Shown one piece after another: positions 3,043 to 12,174 of a stretch of DNA of 32,000 nucleotides. The DNA is from Acaryochloris marina S15 (lineage in GTDB: Bacteria; Cyanobacteriota; Cyanobacteriia; Thermosynechococcales; Thermosynechococcaceae), in assembly GCF_018336915.1 (NCBI RefSeq), contig NZ_CP064923.1, forward strand, positions 540,001 to 572,000. The letters are read 5' to 3'. A model generated the notes under the pieces. It worked only from the letters and a program-made list of their open reading frames with translations. It had not been told where the DNA came from and made no database searches. Both the position numbers and the translations under genes were made by a program. The number at the start of each line of letters is the position of its first letter. The first letter of the stretch is position 1.

Positions 3043-3678
3043 CTACAAAGTGCACTTGGATTTATTCTGACGGACAAGATGTGACCATTTTCTTTTGGCG
3101 AAGATACCAAGACCGATGGTTATAATGCTGCCCAAGAAAGTACTAGGCTCAGGAACAGTCACGAACTCAGGAGAACTAGAACCGTTAAACAATCCGCACA
3201 GTGAACCAGGAGAACCATCACAGACTCGTACGCCTCCGCGAAGTTGAATGTTGCTGAAGGCACCAGGACCCGTAACGTAACGCGGGCCAAATAAGCCGGT
3301 AGTGGGCCTTAAAGTACTAATTCCTTCCCTGAACCTAGTATTGCCATCGCCCAAGGGACCACCATCTAAGTCATAGACAAGACCAAATAAGTCTCCAAAT
3401 CCATAAGTTGTCGGTGGTGTTAACCGATTCCCAGAAAAAGTGACCCTGAAGTCCGAAATTTCACGGAAGTTTTGGGAGCCTCTAAAATACGCAACTTGAC
3501 CATCGCCATCAAGGTCATCGGCGATGAAAAAACCTTCAGTGTAAGCGCCTTCATCAAAACCATCTTGTCTGAAGTTATAGGTTAGGGAGGCTGCTGTTGC
3601 TGGGGATATAAAGCTCAGAACCAAGGTGCATGAGGCATATGCACAGGCTGCTATTGTCAAAAACTTTGAGTTCTTCAT
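3043..3678 (-). CDS. PEP-CTERM sorting-domain secreted protein
   Basis: N-terminal signal peptide MKNSKFLTIAACAYASCTLVLSFISPATA. C-terminal VPEPSTFLGSIITIGLGIFAKRK gives the PEP motif, a TM helix and a basic cluster (exosortase sorting signal). Confidence 0.8.
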   Translation of the reverse strand: MKNSKFLTIAACAYASCTLVLSFISPATAASLTYNFRQDGFDEGAYTEGFFIADDLDGDGQVAYFRGSQNFREISDFRVTFSGNRLTPPTTYGFGDLFGLVYDLDGGPLGDGNTRFREGISTLRPTTGLFGPRYVTGPGAFSNIQLRGGVRVCDGSPGSLCGLFNGSSSPEFVTVPEPSTFLGSIITIGLGIFAKRKWSHLVRQNKSKCTL

Positions 3679-6819: not shown

Positions 6820-7101
6820 TCTATCTCTTAACAAGTCGTAATCAAAGTTAAGCAATGACTCCCATGAAAGTTTACAAATTGAAATAGTATTAACTTCAGA
6901 ACTGAATTTCCTTATATCTATCTGGGTTAACTCTTGGGGGGGTGATCGCGGTCAATCTATTAAAGGATTGAGACTACTAAGCTCTAGTGAGCTATATTTT
7001 TCTTGCTCTGCAGTATTGGACCCGCTGATTACATCAAGCTCCGCTGAACTAGCGGTTCCCGAACCAATCCTCTGACGTTACTTCAGAACATATCTTCTGC
7101 C

Positions 7102-8073
7102 ATGATTACTCATCAAAATCTTTGTAAGAAAAACCATCAGTTTAAGAACAACTGCTTAAAATTCTTGAGTGTGAGCAGTGTTCTTCTGGTCCTAATCAGT
7201 GGATGCAGCTCGGAAAACTCTAGTTCTAAATCTAAATCTCAGGCGCAATCAGGAGACCCGGCAGCCAGTACTCCAGAGCCTCTCAATTCAACGCCGACAA
7301 AATTAAAGTTAACGGTTGTATCTCCCGAGTCACTGCGCGTTAAGCAGGGAGATTTAATCGTTAAGGGGCAAATTTTGGTCGATCGGACCGCTGCCCGTCA
7401 GACCATTATGGCTCGCCGTCAAAAGGTGCAACAGGAAGTTGCGCTTTTAACGGCGACGGAACAGATTCCGACTGCCCCAACGAATACAACTGCGGCAGAA
7501 GCTCAGGTGCAGCAAGCCCGAGAACGGGTTCGTTTAGCGGATGCTGCAATGCAGGATTATCTGGCTAAATCTCCTTACACTGATCTTGCTCGTCAAACCC
7601 TGCCTCTGCCATCGGAGGAGAAACAGTTAGCTCAGTTGCAATTCGCTAAAACCTCTGCTCAAGCCCAGCTAGAACAGGCCATTGCCCAGCGTAAGTCTTT
7701 ACAATCTTCTCAACAAGCTCGGCAACAGGGGCAAGCTGTAGCGTCTAGTAAGAAGAATCAACTTCTCAATGAGTTGAAAACTATTGAGGCCCAATTACAG
7801 GCTTTTCAAGATATTCTGTCTCCCCATGATGCGATTGTGCAAAAGGTCGATTGGCAAAAGAAGGGAAAAAATGGGACGACGGTAGAACTAGCCCTTGCGG
7901 TCCATTCTTTGGCAGATCCTGTTCCATCTCTACCTAATGGGACCAATAATCCTTTGCTATCGGTTCCTAGCCCAGCGCCCGGACAGCCCTTTCCCAGCCT
8001 TCCTGCGCCGTTAGCGCCTGCTCCCCAACCCGCAGCCCCCGGGCAGGTCCCGACTGCTGCTCAGCAACCTTGA
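7102..8073 (+). CDS. Putative lipoprotein with a Gln/Ala-rich coiled coil and a Pro-rich tail
   Basis: Lipobox LISGC. LKLTVVSPESLRVKQGDLIVKGQILVD resembles the lipoyl-like hairpin of membrane-fusion (HlyD-type) proteins. A long Q/A-rich helical region is followed by a PAPxxP tail. Confidence 0.6.
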   Translation: MITHQNLCKKNHQFKNNCLKFLSVSSVLLVLISGCSSENSSSKSKSQAQSGDPAASTPEPLNSTPTKLKLTVVSPESLRVKQGDLIVKGQILVDRTAARQTIMARRQKVQQEVALLTATEQIPTAPTNTTAAEAQVQQARERVRLADAAMQDYLAKSPYTDLARQTLPLPSEEKQLAQLQFAKTSAQAQLEQAIAQRKSLQSSQQARQQGQAVASSKKNQLLNELKTIEAQLQAFQDILSPHDAIVQKVDWQKKGKNGTTVELALAVHSLADPVPSLPNGTNNPLLSVPSPAPGQPFPSLPAPLAPAPQPAAPGQVPTAAQQP

Positions 8074-8271
8074 ATGATCAGTTTGAGTCGAAAGTGACTG
8101 GAGATGTTGCCTGAGGATCATGGCGGTTCTCAATTCAGTGTGTTAGGTTTGGCCACTGAGTCAATGGCGTGCTGTGAGGTAGCGGTTCAGGTTCTGAATA
8201 TCTGACTGGTACTTTGAAGCTGAAAATTGCGGATAAGTGTACCGCCAAGCACACAAGGTTGATTCACCATT

Positions 8272-8340
8272 CCTCGATTAGCTCAGCGGGAGAGCACCGG
8301 GCTTATCCGGGGGGCGTAGGTTCAAATCCTACATCGAGCG
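8272..8340 (+). ncRNA. tRNA-like element 1: cloverleaf with an aberrant anticodon arm
   Basis: Acceptor CCTCGAT / ATCGAGC: pairs 2-7 are Watson-Crick and 1:72 is C.C. U8-A9 is present. D-arm GCTC-AGCGGGA-GAGC. T-arm GTAGG-TTCAAAT-CCTAC. The anticodon arm is only CCGG-GCTTAT-CCGG (4 bp, 6-nt loop, no U33-NNN-purine pattern). There is no encoded CCA. Confidence 0.6.
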
Positions 8341-8343
8341 AAC

Positions 8344-8419
8344 CGAAAGCTAGCTCAGTTGGTAGAGCATCAGACTCATAATCTGACTGTCACAGGTTCA
8401 AATCCTGTACTTTCCACCA
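8344..8419 (+). tRNA. tRNA-like element 2: CAU anticodon (Met/Ile2 type) with a defective acceptor stem and encoded CCA
   Basis: D-arm TA-GCTC-AGTTGGTA-GAGC. Anticodon arm TCAGA-CTCATAA-TCTGA. Variable loop CTGTC. T-arm ACAGG-TTCAAAT-CCTGT. 3' end ACTTTCC-A-CCA. The 5' acceptor strand CGAAAGC gives a C.C mismatch at 1:72 and C.A at 7:66. It starts only 3 nt after element 1. Confidence 0.6.
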
Positions 8420-8423
8420 CCCC

Positions 8424-8509
8424 GCCCTGGGTATGGGCACCTCGTTTAGGACGAGTTATGTCATCGGTACGGGAGCAATCCCAAGGTGGTTCAAATCCAC
8501 TTGATAAGC
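8424..8509 (+). ncRNA. tRNA-like element 3: T-arm-containing multi-hairpin RNA with no acceptor stem
   Basis: Hairpins: GCCC-TGGGTAT-GGGC (8424-8438, D-arm-like); CTCG-TTTAGGA-CGAG (8441-8455, a loop like tRNA-Leu UAG); GGGA-GCAA-TCCC (8471-8482, GNRA tetraloop); T-arm GGTGG-TTCAAAT-CCACT (8485-8501). The tail TGATAAGC follows. No complementary 5' acceptor strand exists. Confidence 0.45.
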
Positions 8510-8619
8510 ATCCGGTTGTTGGTGTCTCGCGGTGAGTGTCACTCGGTGGCCGTCACTGCAACAGCCAAAGGCCAGCGCAATCGCATTGGATGATCGGTTT
8601 GAGTAGGTTCCTTTGAAGG

Positions 8620-8650
8620 GCAACCGCTGGGAGGAAATTCCAGGGGTTGC
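8620..8650 (+). other. Stem-loop in the SPFH leader
   Basis: GCAACCGCTGG (8620-8630) / CCAGGGGTTGC (8640-8650): 11 bp with one G.G mismatch and a 9-nt loop GAGGAAATT. No U-tract follows, so it is not a terminator. Confidence 0.4.
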
Positions 8651-8792
8651 TGCTGCGAACGGCCTATCGGTTGAAGACAGAACCCAGGCTTAACCTTCGG
8701 GTGGGGCTGCGGTTCACCTTCAACTTAATCCAGCTGATCATGGGCGATTGCCCGCACTGTAACTGTGGAGACCAACAGCCTTGGGTGCTTTT

Positions 8793-8810
8793 AGATGTGG
8801 CCCCACATCT
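8793..8810 (+). promoter_or_regulatory. Perfect 18-nt palindrome AGATGTGGCCCCACATCT just upstream of the SPFH RBS
   Basis: Read directly from the sequence. It ends 25 nt before ATG 8836 and 12 nt before the GAAGGA Shine-Dalgarno-like element. It could be an operator or a translational-control hairpin. Confidence 0.4.
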
Positions 8811-8835
8811 ATGCGAGAAGAAGAAGGAAATAACA

Positions 8836-10368
8836 ATGTTTAAGTCGTTTTATATCAAGCCCCATGAACGGGGTATGTTGTTTTATCGCAGCAAGTTTGA
8901 GATGTTTTTGCTGCCGGGTACCCATCGTCGCATGGGGTGGCATTGGCAGGTGAAGACTTTTGATTTAAATCAGCCCCAAGTCCAGATTGACCATTTGGAG
9001 ATGTTGCTGCAAACCCATGCCCACAGTATGGATGAGTATTTTACGGTGGTGCGCACGGCTTATAACCAGGCTGCCTTAGTCCGGTTAGGACAACAATGGT
9101 GCACGATTGGCCCGAATCAACTGCAAGCGTTTTGGCGGGGGTTTATTGAGGTAGAAGTGCACCTATTTAACCTAGATGAGGGGCTTGAACTGCCGTCTCA
9201 GTTTGTCCAGCGATTGCGAGACGTATCGCTACCAGATTTGAATCGGGTCTCAATTCCTGAATCCCAGTTGGGGATGCTCTATGAGCAGGATAATTTTGTT
9301 CGACCTCTGGCTCCTGGAGAGTATGGGTTTTGGACCTGCGATCGCAAAATCAGTATCACCCGCTATAATCGCACCCGCCCTGAACCCGATTTCTCTTTTG
9401 AGGAAGTGCTGATTGAGCGGCATCCCGAGTTTGTCGCTAGTCACTGTGAATCCGTGCAGTTGGGCAATCAGGAAGTTGCCATTGTCCGGTACCAAGGCAA
9501 AGCAATTACGATTTTGCCCCCCTGTAGTCGCAAGCTCTTTTGGAAAGGGGTTGCGGTTGAGGTGATTGATATCAGTGAAGATGCCAAGCTATCGCCAGTG
9601 CTCGTGGCCGAGCTGGTCGCGGGGTTACCGGAAGCCCTAGAGCTGGCCTATGATGTCTTACATATTTTGGAAGTTCCGGCCCAGCATTTAGGGCTGCTGT
9701 ATGAAGCCAGTGCGTTTGTAGAGACGCTGACTCCGGGTTGGCATGTCTGGTGGACCTTTGGTCGGGCTTGGAAAACTGAAGTGGTGGATTTGCGTTTGCA
9801 AACCCTAGAGGTCTCCGGTCAGGAAATCTTGTCTAAGGATAAGGTGTCTCTTCGCCTTAACCTGACGGCGGGATATCGGATCACGGATCCCGTGCAGGCC
9901 AAAACTGGCTTGAGCAATATTGAGGATTATCTCTATAAAGAGCTTCAATTTGCCCTCCGCTCAGCAGTGGGCACCAAGTCTCTGGATCAACTCCTAGAAG
10001 ATAAGGGGGCGATTGATGCTAGCGTCTCTGACCATATTCGCGAGAAAACGGAGCAGTATGGGGTTGTCATTGCTTCCGTGGGTGTCAAAGATATCATTCT
10101 GCCCGGAGAAATGAAGGCCATTCTCTGTCAGGTGGTTGAAGCAGAGAAATCCGCCCAGGCCAACGTTATTCGTCGTCGGGAAGAGACGGCTGCCACGCGC
10201 AGTATGCTCAACACTGCCAAGGTGATGGAGAGTAATCCCGTGGCCCTGCGCTTGAAAGAGCTGGAGGTGTTAGAACGGATCGCGGACAAAATTGAGCATA
10301 TTCATGTCAATGGCGGTCTCGATAGTATCTTGACCGAGATGATTCGCATCAATGGGGCTAGAGAGTAG
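8836..10368 (+). CDS. SPFH/Band-7 (stomatin/slipin-like) protein; soluble, with three tandem N-terminal-type modules
   Basis: The C-terminal half carries a canonical SPFH core: LRLNLTAGYRITDP, VGVKDIILPGEMKAI, AEKSAQANVIRRREETAATR, NPVALRLKELEVL. I chose ATG 8836 (GAAGGA 8-13 nt upstream) over the ORF-track TTG at 8647, because that extension overlaps the structured leader. I see no hydrophobic TM segment. Confidence 0.8.
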   Translation: MFKSFYIKPHERGMLFYRSKFEMFLLPGTHRRMGWHWQVKTFDLNQPQVQIDHLEMLLQTHAHSMDEYFTVVRTAYNQAALVRLGQQWCTIGPNQLQAFWRGFIEVEVHLFNLDEGLELPSQFVQRLRDVSLPDLNRVSIPESQLGMLYEQDNFVRPLAPGEYGFWTCDRKISITRYNRTRPEPDFSFEEVLIERHPEFVASHCESVQLGNQEVAIVRYQGKAITILPPCSRKLFWKGVAVEVIDISEDAKLSPVLVAELVAGLPEALELAYDVLHILEVPAQHLGLLYEASAFVETLTPGWHVWWTFGRAWKTEVVDLRLQTLEVSGQEILSKDKVSLRLNLTAGYRITDPVQAKTGLSNIEDYLYKELQFALRSAVGTKSLDQLLEDKGAIDASVSDHIREKTEQYGVVIASVGVKDIILPGEMKAILCQVVEAEKSAQANVIRRREETAATRSMLNTAKVMESNPVALRLKELEVLERIADKIEHIHVNGGLDSILTEMIRINGARE

Positions 10369-10410
10369 GGGAATAGGAGCCGATTCACCATCAGCTCCTA
10401 AAGGCAAGAT

Positions 10411-10854
10411 ATGGAAGCAGTCATCTTTGTGGGCATTCAGGCCACAGGCAAATCGACGTTTTATCACCATCGGTTTGGTCGGACCCATGTGCGGATCAAT
10501 CTGGATATGTTGAAAACTCGACATCGTGAGCAACAGTTTTTGTCCACCTGCCTAGATACCCGTCAACGCTTTGTGGTGGACAACACCAATCCCACTCCTG
10601 CTGATCGCCAGCGGTATATCCAGCCTGCCCAAGCACAGGGCTTCTCGATTACAGGGTATTACTTTGAATCGAAGTTGGCAGATGCATTGATACGAAACTG
10701 CGATCGCACTCCCGACCAACAAATTTCAGATAAAGGGATCCGAGGAACAGCCTCTCGCCTCATCTTGCCTGCTTATGACGAGGGGTTTGACCAACTTTTT
10801 TATGTTCGTATTCTCCCCCATCAACACTTTGCAGTTGAGGACTGGCAACCATGA
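10411..10854 (+). CDS. P-loop polynucleotide 5'-kinase family protein (PNK/PNKP kinase-domain-like)
   Basis: Walker A GIQATGKST. RINLDMLKT aligns with the catalytic-Asp region of PNK kinases. FVVDNTNPTPADRQRYIQPAQAQGF and DEGFDQLFYV follow the mammalian PNKP / T4 Pnk kinase-domain pattern (V-I-D-N-T-N-P ... R-x-R-Y-I ... E-G-F). There is no phosphatase domain. Confidence 0.75.
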   Translation: MEAVIFVGIQATGKSTFYHHRFGRTHVRINLDMLKTRHREQQFLSTCLDTRQRFVVDNTNPTPADRQRYIQPAQAQGFSITGYYFESKLADALIRNCDRTPDQQISDKGIRGTASRLILPAYDEGFDQLFYVRILPHQHFAVEDWQP

Positions 10855-11612
10855 AATTTACTGAACTCGATCAAAAACTGAGAGTCTTTGAAACCGCTCA
10901 TGATTTATGCGTTTTGCCTGGGTTGTACATGGTGGCTCGTTTGGATGGACGGAATTTTACCCGCTTAACCAAAGAAACCTTGGACTTAGAAGCCCCCTTT
11001 GATTCAGGCTTTCGGGATGCCATGGTGGCAACGGTTCAGCATTTGATGAACTGCGGATTTCGAGTGATGTATGGCTATACCCAAAGCGACGAAATCTCTT
11101 TACTGCTGCACCCAGAAGAGCAGACCTTTGCTCGTAAGCTGCGCAAGCTCAACTCTTTGCTGGCAGCGGAAGCCAGTGCTAAATTGTCATTGATCTTGGG
11201 CAGTATGGCTGTCTTTGACGGTCGCATCTCCCAACTGCCCACGGTTGATTTAGTCGTTGACTATTTTCGATGGCGACAGGAAGATGCCCACCGCAATGCC
11301 CTCAATGCCCATTGCTACTGGATGTTGCGTAAATCGGGTGACTCCGCGAGCATGGCAACTCAGAAGTTAGAGGGATTATCTGTAGGCGATAAGAATGAAT
11401 TGCTGTTTCAACTGGGGCAAATCAACTTTAATGACTTACCCCACTGGCAAAAGCGGGGAGTGGGTTGCGCTTGGCAGTCGTATCCAACGGCAGGCATCAA
11501 CCCTATGTCAGGGGAAGTCTCTCAAGGGACCCGCACGAAAATCAGCATTGAGGTCAACTTGCCCATGAAAGAAGACTACAGGGAATTTGTCCTCAATTTA
11601 ATGACTCGCTGA
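10851..11612 (+). CDS. Thg1-like protein (TLP; tRNA-His guanylyltransferase superfamily, 3'-5' nucleotidyltransferase)
   Basis: VARLDGRNFTRL, YGYTQSDEISLLL (metal-binding D-E), FDGRISQLP, YFRWRQEDAHRNALN and GDKNELLF all match conserved Thg1-family blocks. The eukaryotic HINNLYN block is replaced by HRNALNA, which fits the TLP subgroup. The start overlaps the kinase stop (ATGA). Confidence 0.85.
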   Translation: MKFTELDQKLRVFETAHDLCVLPGLYMVARLDGRNFTRLTKETLDLEAPFDSGFRDAMVATVQHLMNCGFRVMYGYTQSDEISLLLHPEEQTFARKLRKLNSLLAAEASAKLSLILGSMAVFDGRISQLPTVDLVVDYFRWRQEDAHRNALNAHCYWMLRKSGDSASMATQKLEGLSVGDKNELLFQLGQINFNDLPHWQKRGVGCAWQSYPTAGINPMSGEVSQGTRTKISIEVNLPMKEDYREFVLNLMTR

Positions 11613-11616
11613 ACCT

Positions 11617-12174
11617 CTATTTCTGGGATAAAACTCGCAGCCAGGGCTTTTGGGCTCGGCGGCGCTCTAAACTCATTTCAAAGCCATAGGCTTTAAATTC
11701 TTGTTCACTGTAATATTCCCGAAACCGAGCCAAGGGAACGCGAGACCGACCATCTAGAGAGTGAACAATAGACGTAGGAACACGAACATCTCCTCCCAAA
11801 TGGACAAAGGCTTCTTCTACCGTCATCCAGGGGCGCTTAGAATCGCTCACTTCCGTGGGAATCGCTTGCTCTAAACTGCTCAGCTTATCGGCCAATCCCT
11901 TGACCATATTGCCGGGCTTCATATTTGAATTTTGCTTTGATTTCTGCAGTTTCCCTATCCACACTTGGATCAGAGAGCTGAAATACTGGAAAATTCGCTT
12001 GAGAATTCGCCCACAGACTTGAAGGATGCTGCCAGCCCCGGCTTGACTGGACGGGCTGCCCTGAGAGGCAATGGCGGCACTGGACCAGCCGCAATTGGCA
12101 CAGACTTGACGCCCGGATTTGAGAGGGGGTCCTAAGCGATTGGAGCAACGGGGACAGGTTTCCAGCATAGTCAA
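11617..12174 (-). CDS. Hypothetical protein with an N-terminal zinc ribbon
   Basis: CPRCSNRLGPPLKSGRQVCANCGW (CxxC...CxxC). Convergent with the TLP gene; the stops are 4 nt apart. Confidence 0.55.
   Translation of the reverse strand: MTMLETCPRCSNRLGPPLKSGRQVCANCGWSSAAIASQGSPSSQAGAGSILQVCGRILKRIFQYFSSLIQVWIGKLQKSKQNSNMKPGNMVKGLADKLSSLEQAIPTEVSDSKRPWMTVEEAFVHLGGDVRVPTSIVHSLDGRSRVPLARFREYYSEQEFKAYGFEMSLERRRAQKPWLRVLSQK

Follow-up and report, generated by a model that had tools for sequence, protein, structure and literature searches.

A conserved tandem of putative non-decoding tRNA mimics upstream of a predicted vault-like SPFH protein gene in Acaryochloris marina and its relatives

Introduction

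A class of tRNA-like RNA, the b7a-tRNA (for 'band 7-associated tRNA'), was predicted by Burroughs and Aravind (2016) beside Band-7 genes in RtcB repair operons and, in the secondary description given by bioRxiv 10.1101/312249, is said never to have been validated experimentally. No description of this RNA is given in further papers by these authors' group. Here, we analyse a stretch of 32,000 nucleotides from Acaryochloris marina S15 (contig NZ_CP064923.1, positions 540,001 to 572,000 of the forward strand), referred to as the window, in which two back-to-back tRNA-like genes (elements 1 and 2) precede a gene encoding an SPFH/Band-7 protein, itself followed by genes encoding a polynucleotide 5'-kinase-like protein and a Thg1-like protein (TLP). 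A first-pass annotation of this DNA had proposed that both RNAs are dedicated substrates for 5'-editing by the TLP or, as a fallback, non-decoding mimics of tRNA. We consider it fairly probable that the two elements form a conserved tandem of tRNA mimics with no decoding role, found together with a vault-like SPFH protein in bacterial RNA-repair and translation-stress modules.

Like the b7a-tRNA, the pair is a tRNA-like non-coding RNA encoded beside a Band-7/SPFH gene and a predicted cofactor RNA; some homologs of its SPFH protein occur with the RNA-repair genes RlaP and rtcR. Unlike the b7a-tRNA as secondarily described, it is a fixed tandem of two cloverleaves with about 550 nt of extra conserved RNA, and its partner enzymes in the window are a PNK-type kinase and a TLP, not RtcB.

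Several other systems share some of these properties. The Ro60 (Rsr) protein and its Y RNA or YrlA, encoded by rsr-yrlBA-rtcBA operons, also associate, within an RNA-repair operon, a tRNA-shaped non-coding RNA and a protein that forms rings or cages; this RNA presumably tethers or gates enzymes, and the effector domain of YrlA mimics tRNA. However, the window encodes complete cloverleaves, whereas the Ro60 system has a tRNA-like module on a Ro-binding stem. A reading of the window RNAs as Y RNA (YrlA) was rejected: the Rfam score was 17 bits for a gathering score of 69 (E=5.2), and the window encodes no Ro60/TROVE protein. The vault particle, made of the major vault protein (MVP) and vault RNA, resembles the locus by the N-terminal beta repeats, the SPFH-like 'shoulder' and the long helix of its protein and by the small structured RNAs alongside. 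Vault RNAs are, however, not tRNA cloverleaves; moreover, the SPFH protein of the window has two repeats instead of nine and aligns with MVP with a low TM-score, ~0.3 (query-normalised).

Amoebozoan mitochondrial tRNA 5'-editing (DdiTLP3 and relatives) recalls the window by the encoded 5' acceptor mismatches and by the TLP encoded nearby, and its chemistry would fit. Its substrates are nevertheless working tRNAs with conserved identities, whereas here the anticodons vary, element 1 is unable to decode, the occurrence of the mismatch does not follow that of a TLP and position 1 alone is affected. Finally, element 2 shares with bacterial initiator tRNA (C1.A72) an unpaired 1:72 position and CAU as its commonest anticodon. 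An initiator-tRNA reading of element 2 was also rejected: it lacks the three G:C pairs in the anticodon stem, has an elongator D stem and has a variable anticodon.

Results

Two covarying cloverleaves upstream of the SPFH gene

Both ARAGORN and Rfam detect exactly two tRNA-like genes in the window, located, as are all window features given hereafter, on the + strand. Element 1 (8272..8340; Rfam tRNA 52.7 bits, E=9e-09; 'tRNA-???' according to ARAGORN) and element 2 (8344..8419; Rfam tRNA 61.1 bits, E=4e-11) are separated by the 3-nt spacer AAC (8341-8343). The acceptor stem of element 1 (CCTCGAT/ATCGAGC) places C8272 opposite C8339 (C1.C72), with G8340 as discriminator. Its anticodon arm can be drawn as CCGG/GCTTAT/CCGG (4 bp, 6-nt loop), the form described by the first-pass annotation, or as CCGGG/CTTA/TCCGG (5 bp including a G.U pair, 4-nt loop), and ARAGORN assigns it a mere 2-nt anticodon. 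The acceptor stem of element 2 (CGAAAGC/ACTTTCC) contains two mismatches, C8344.C8415 (1:72) and C8350.A8409 (7:66), the latter being confined to the window clade. Element 2 has an anticodon stem UCAGA/UCUGA closing a 7-nt loop (CUCAUAA, anticodon CAU), a D stem of elongator type (C11:G24), A73 and an encoded CCA (8417-8419). Both elements carry GGTTCAAATCC in their T arm (8319-8329 and 8395-8405). All the features that the first-pass annotation had read here, i.e. the two genes and their spacer, the shared C1.C72, the identical T-arm sequence, the 6-nt loop of element 1 and the C7.A66, CAU loop and CCA of element 2, are found in the sequence; a third copy of the T-arm motif, described below, had been overlooked.

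In order to compare the window with other loci, DNA stretches were fetched around homologs of its TLP or SPFH protein and labelled L001, L081, etc. The TLP set comprises 80 loci from many phyla (61-82% identity of the TLP) and the SPFH set 86 loci. The nearest relatives of the window locus belong to Acaryochloris. Among the loci, L081 is a 96%-identical relative with the same layout as the window, L001 is the nearest relative bearing kinase and TLP genes, and L087 is a close relative (SPFH protein 86% identical to that of the window) that lacks both genes.

A covariance model of the double cloverleaf, with pairs accepted at scores of at least 119 bits, retrieved 41 pairs (36 distinct), every one located upstream of an SPFH gene and on the same strand. 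Over 27 loci, 95.1% of the cells of the two-cloverleaf structure are paired, and 33 of the 42 base pairs show double-sided changes. This level of pairing was reached by none of 500 shuffles, and slid controls were 29-43% paired. All four helices of element 1 covary (27-36 loci), and every base pair other than 1:72 of element 2 is formed in 27-36 of the 36 loci. Rfam matches and covariation both support, for the two elements, a cloverleaf with D and T arms. In addition, nearly all SPFH loci with enough upstream DNA have same-strand tRNA-like genes upstream, usually as a back-to-back pair, the first member of which is often 'tRNA-???' for ARAGORN.

The distribution of the TLP is different. Neither ARAGORN nor the pair model found the tandem in the 79 other TLP loci, where the best score (79.9 bits) corresponds to ordinary tRNAs; within the TLP set, SPFH and the pair accompany kinase-TLP only in L001. 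Conversely, a TLP gene is adjacent in 3 of the ~41 pair loci (window, L081 and L001), in which SPFH, kinase and TLP genes are packed as one operon. The kinase gene lies directly upstream of the TLP gene in ~60 of the 80 TLP loci. L087 has the same upstream and downstream genes as the window, and kinase and TLP are entirely absent from it; hence, the two genes make up a cassette of 1.25 kb that has been either acquired or lost immediately after the SPFH gene. Judged by this distribution, the pair belongs to the SPFH gene and not to the TLP, and kinase-TLP is a widespread, separate cassette.

In eight metagenomic loci encoding an SPFH protein of ~376 aa (L135, L138, L141, L142, L153, L157, L161 and L162), SPFH and its proximal pair lie inside arrays of 10-24 ordinary tRNA genes. 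Additional tRNAs are found directly downstream of SPFH in such metagenomic distant relatives.

Position 1:72 and the TLP

The two nucleotides at 1:72 of element 2 fail to pair in 20 of 26 loci and, in a larger set, in 27 of 34 distinct loci, N1 being mostly C or A and facing A or C. Second members of generic tRNA doublets from the same loci, aligned to the same covariance model, are paired at this position in 61 of 83 cases versus 7 of 34 for element 2 (Fisher p=2.5e-7). Element 1, by contrast, forms its 1:72 pair in 31 of 36 loci; C1.C72 is restricted to the window and L081, the other relatives having U:A (L001 and L087 for instance) or G:C. Conservation of the mismatch is therefore denied for element 1 and upheld for element 2, irrespective of the TLP. 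Alignments indicate that the C1.C72 of element 1 is most likely a private substitution, whereas the short anticodon loop of element 1 and the unpaired 1:72 of element 2 are family traits.

These data bear on the proposal that both RNAs are dedicated TLP substrates, of which the mismatched 5' nucleotide would be removed or never retained, the kinase would ready the 5' end and the TLP would use position 72 as template for the nucleotide that it adds (in the window a G, facing C72), as in amoebozoan editing. Both window elements have their mismatch within the first three acceptor pairs, position 1 of element 2 is unpaired throughout most of the family, and SPFH, kinase and TLP share an operon in the window, L081 and L001. 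Furthermore, bacterial TLPs favour 5'-truncated tRNAs, which they fill in by Watson-Crick templating (PMC6471195). The tails of the elements also suit this proposal: element 1 usually ends in N73-C-C and element 2 often in N73-CCA, and N1 of element 2 can be read as the last residue of an N73-C-C-N tail of element 1. Read in this way, element 2 would lack one nucleotide from the outset and be a natural 5'-truncated substrate.

However, although a G opposite C72 would indeed complete both stems in the window, this is not a conserved property. L001 has U1:A72 in both elements despite its kinase-TLP operon, so the mismatch is not kept by all TLP-bearing orthologs. The mismatch of element 2 is seen equally in dozens of loci without a TLP nearby, and L087 has the pair without the cassette. 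Moreover, such RNAs occur in none of the 79 other kinase-TLP loci, and the homologous SPFH module of E. coli and Citrobacter uses RlaP instead. The RNAs track SPFH rather than the TLP, and their being dedicated editing substrates is unlikely.

Anticodon loops and decoding

The anticodon loop of element 1 has 7 nt in 12 of the 36 loci and 2-6 nt in the 24 others. By contrast, that of element 2 has 7 nt in 33 of the 36 loci, with U33 in 26 and a purine at position 37 in 30. Element 1 lacks the canonical loop (7 nt, U33, purine 37) that element 2 displays in the window and mostly elsewhere. Nevertheless, the anticodon identity of element 2 is not kept among orthologs: the 33 seven-nt loops present 17 different triplets on a tRNA body that is otherwise conserved. 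CAU, found in the window, is the commonest (9/33); L001 has CAC, and GAU and GUU also occur in the family. Since the anticodons of orthologs differ and the loop of element 1 is shortened, we read the pair as non-decoding, in agreement with the fallback proposal of the first-pass annotation.

Alternatively, element 2 (and element 1 in some species) could be a working spare tRNA belonging to a stress-induced 'extra tRNA' repertoire, like the trn array of Anabaena, its linkage with SPFH being incidental. Its 7-nt loop, U33 and R37, its often encoded CCA and an Rfam score that is normal for a tRNA are what this explanation predicts, and the pair is continuous with arrays of ordinary tRNA genes in distant loci. 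Furthermore, a single TrcR regulon of Anabaena includes both its tRNA array and a slipin gene (PMC10272220). A spare tRNA would, however, hardly shift its anticodon between close orthologs on an unchanged body, nor leave 1:72 systematically unpaired when the generic tRNAs of the same loci pair it. In addition, element 1 is unable to decode in 24 of the 36 loci, and the order and spacing of the pair are fixed inside a larger conserved RNA region. We hold this alternative to be improbable.

A larger conserved RNA region around the pair

Non-coding sequence is conserved across cyanobacteria over ~150 nt upstream and ~400 nt downstream of the pair. The 5' domain (8121..8271), which is conserved between the window, L081 and L001 and aligns in 24 cyanobacterial SPFH loci, comprises conserved blocks and covarying hairpins. 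The 3' domain, extending from element 2 toward the SPFH gene (8420..8791), has a mean column identity of 91% among the window, L081 and L001, and blocks of it, several of them invariant, are kept across 16 cyanobacterial loci. Neither flanking domain matches an Rfam family. The 3' domain includes a degenerate third tRNA-like piece (8441..8509), detected by ARAGORN at -ps80 only. It consists of a GGGAGCAAUCCC hairpin (8471-8482) followed by a T-arm-like hairpin (8485-8501) that carries the third copy of GGTTCAAATCC (8488-8498) and is retained with compensatory changes in ~9 of 16 aligned loci. The single-sequence fold of 8417-8660 is not significant (z=-1.35).

The whole intergenic region (8121-8835 in the window, 4270-4978 in L001) is conserved over ~700 nt, as it also is in L081, in L087 and in over 20 further loci from cyanobacteria. 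It may constitute one large structured RNA.

Between this RNA and the SPFH gene, 15 of 25 cyanobacterial SPFH loci carry the published TrcR operator octamer (TGTAGTAT/ATACTACA) at a fixed site, to which 17 of the 20 exact matches found in 295 kb belong. The octamer closely follows the conserved RNA and precedes either SPFH or a small ORF located ahead of SPFH (for instance at 5929 in L083, 4911 in L105 and 5326 in L084). The window clade has no octamer at this position; alignment reveals there the palindrome TAGATGTGGCCCCACATCTA (8792..8811), directly upstream of the SPFH ribosome-binding site, and L001 has a different hairpin. In Calothrix sp. NIES-2100 (L084, 5419-6000), a small ORF (DUF8412/OmdA-like, 193 aa) is located between the TrcR box and SPFH, an arrangement that matches the alr0739-alr0740 layout reported for Anabaena.

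That the cloverleaves are merely cis-acting parts of the SPFH leader (RNase P/Z processing or stability signals, or a sensing leader) without function in trans seems very doubtful: the pair is always upstream of SPFH on the same strand, conserved sequence reaches the SPFH start in the window clade and the hairpin preceding the ribosome-binding site changes in a compensatory manner between the window and L001, but the TrcR-type operator/promoter found between RNA and SPFH in 15 of 25 cyanobacterial loci implies separate transcription, and as much as 1-2.7 kb, including ORFs or a reverse transcriptase gene, can separate the pair from SPFH.

Eight SPFH loci encode a retron-type reverse transcriptase (PADLOC RT_XIII, E ~1e-148). 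In the seven of these loci that are cyanobacterial, it is on the same strand, just upstream of the pair or between the tRNA-like elements. The genes are located at 4170-5213 in L083, 3099-4142 in L095/L096, 2979-4064 in L099, 439-1491 in L097, 438-1544 in L101, 2-979 in L091 and 3129-3644 (minus strand) in L156. The literature on type XIII retrons makes no mention of SPFH or tRNA-like RNAs.

The SPFH protein, the kinase and the TLP

The SPFH/Band-7 ('slipin family') protein (510 aa, 8836..10368; Pfam Band_7 1e-30) was assigned the start codon ATG 8836 because its homologs have 508-528 aa. In its AF2 model (pLDDT 80.7), the N terminus is made of two beta-rich repeats, and an SPFH core and a long helix are also seen, an order of domains resembling that of the vault protein. 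Foldseek aligned this model with stomatin over the C-terminal half (4e-15) and with major vault protein over the full length (1.6e-14). No obvious membrane segment was found in the protein. Because of this and of the full-length fold alignment to major vault protein, the predicted fold (MVP-like repeats, shoulder and cap helix) speaks for a cage in solution more than for a scaffold of membrane microdomains.

The presence of a kinase and a TLP downstream, reported by the first-pass annotation, is supported by Pfam, NCBIfam and PDB matches. The small P-loop polynucleotide 5'-kinase-like protein (147 aa, 10411..10854) matches Pfam AAA_33 (1e-09), the kinase part of the NCBIfam PNK-3'Pase (8.5e-14) and the PNKP kinase domain in the PDB (4e-08). 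The TLP (253 aa, 10851..11612), which belongs to a family of 3'-5' RNA polymerases and the start of which overlaps the kinase stop, has both Thg1 domains (Pfam Thg1 3e-29, Thg1C 3e-17) and the expected carboxylates, residues D32, D80 and E81 being invariant in the alignment of homologs. Its closest solved structure is MaTLP 5AXK (3e-25), and human Thg1 and BtTLP were also matched. PADLOC recognised neither the SPFH protein nor the kinase nor the TLP; its only match was the neighbouring reverse transcriptase of other loci (RT_XIII).

RNA-repair and stress-regulon contexts of SPFH homologs

SPFH homologs from Citrobacter and E. coli (44-46% identity) are paired with RlaP. In Citrobacter, rtcR, slipin and RlaP (PF10127, 1.5e-96; 'RNA repair pathway' nucleotidyltransferase) lie together, and RlaP is also encoded in L154 and L161. 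RlaP biochemistry is treated in bioRxiv 10.64898/2025.12.29.696909. The slipin-RlaP module of E. coli is present in 1625 of 5426 complete genomes (~30%). This two-gene module is located at 3960-7913 in L167 (Citrobacter freundii), beside a divergent rtcR, and at 5998-7922 in L168 (E. coli). In its leader, where no cloverleaf was detected, are TGGCAC, a sigma-54-like element, and an isolated T-arm motif (GTGGGTTCGATTCCCA).

In Anabaena PCC 7120, inactivation of trcR derepresses the slipin gene alr0740, the product of which may belong to the SPFH family of the window, 42-fold, alr0740 and its upstream ORF being derepressed 42-72-fold, and rtcB and the stress-induced tRNA array are derepressed alongside (PMC10272220). 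A TrcR box was found upstream of only 1 of 26 stand-alone cyanobacterial kinase-TLP cassettes; hence, nothing puts these cassettes in the same regulon.

Other neighbours

A coiled-coil ORF of 323 aa (7102..8073), with weak matches of coiled-coil type in Pfam and NCBIfam, lies upstream of the RNA region. Homologs are found upstream of the RNA in four loci only (window, L081, L001 and L087), and this ORF is a lineage-specific neighbour, not a core part. The genes flanking the locus encode DUF2396/TIGR02652 and a DUF3474 desaturase (Pfam/NCBIfam) and, like the nearest relatives, point to a cyanobacterium. Recurrent clusters of protein neighbours are mostly antisense artefacts or housekeeping genes. 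A promoter and terminator scan of 7000-11900 found fewer sites than in shuffles and is uninformative. Other TLP genes also have RNA genes nearby: a tmRNA gene lies directly downstream of a kinase-less TLP gene in a Trueperaceae genome (L006, 7887-8251), and tRNA-Ser and tRNA-Pro genes lie directly upstream of a TLP gene in a Cyclobacteriaceae genome (L072, 2281-2698 and 6617-6831), with an RNase P RNA gene 4 kb off.

Discussion

The reading that we favour, a conserved tandem of non-decoding mimics associated with the SPFH protein, leads to a possible mechanism. RNA and SPFH protein would form a ribonucleoprotein that either offers enzymes of tRNA-end repair a scaffold or bait shaped like a tRNA, or draws tRNA-targeting toxins, in a manner akin to that of Y RNA with Ro60. 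In the lineage of the window, a mobile kinase-TLP cassette would have been placed behind the SPFH gene as an accessory. It could heal 5' ends (5'-OH to 5'-P) and restore the acceptor stems of damaged tRNAs by templated 3'-5' refilling, and would be in this respect the 5'-end counterpart of the restoration of 3'-end nucleotides by RlaP. Two features most likely bar the mimics from translation, namely the crippled anticodon loop in element 1 and the unpaired 1:72 in element 2. A 1:72 mismatch in initiator tRNA is an anti-determinant for EF-Tu, and it is because this mismatch is known to act so that element 2 would be kept out of elongation.

Several points weigh against this reading. The scaffold or bait role of the RNAs is proposed by analogy with Ro60/Y RNA. 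The pair matches the predicted 'Band-7-associated tRNA' class, a match that rests on a secondary description of the latter. The loop shape and CCA of element 2 may allow a real tRNA function, and the tight SPFH-kinase-TLP operon of three loci suggests a functional tie with the TLP. Moreover, the covariance model, ARAGORN and Rfam found no pair in the enterobacterial slipin-RlaP leaders, which have the T-arm motif only and an MFE (minimum free energy) fold that is not tRNA-like; therefore, the RNA partner may not be universal for the SPFH family. In addition, no RtcB gene was found adjoining any pair-bearing SPFH locus, and Alr0740 may not be an ortholog of the SPFH protein of the window.

A bolder version, which we regard as doubtful, would make SPFH a soluble vault-like cage around the ~700-nt RNA, showing two tRNA mimics. 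Element 2, with its frayed or missing first nucleotide and fast-evolving anticodon, would then be purpose-built, either as a bait for tRNA-targeting toxins or as a substrate on which end-repair enzymes dock or prime. These enzymes would be TLP and kinase in the window and, in other loci, RlaP, RtcB or a reverse transcriptase of retron type. If this were true, the vault-like cage would be a bacterial counterpart of the vault and Ro ribonucleoproteins, dedicated to the surveillance of tRNA damage.

Whatever the version, the b7a-type class gains a concrete anatomy: a covarying double cloverleaf with a crippled first loop, and an unpaired 1:72 and a hypervariable anticodon in the second cloverleaf, within ~700 nt of conserved RNA beside a vault-like SPFH protein. 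Furthermore, the operon of the window is one of the few genomic contexts that hint at where the substrates of bacterial TLPs lie, though the 5'-editing idea is unsupported. Finally, the module is tied to three distinct lines of RNA-damage biology, namely enterobacterial RlaP/RtcR, the cyanobacterial TrcR regulon of translation stress and the kinase-TLP 5'-end repair cassette in the window.

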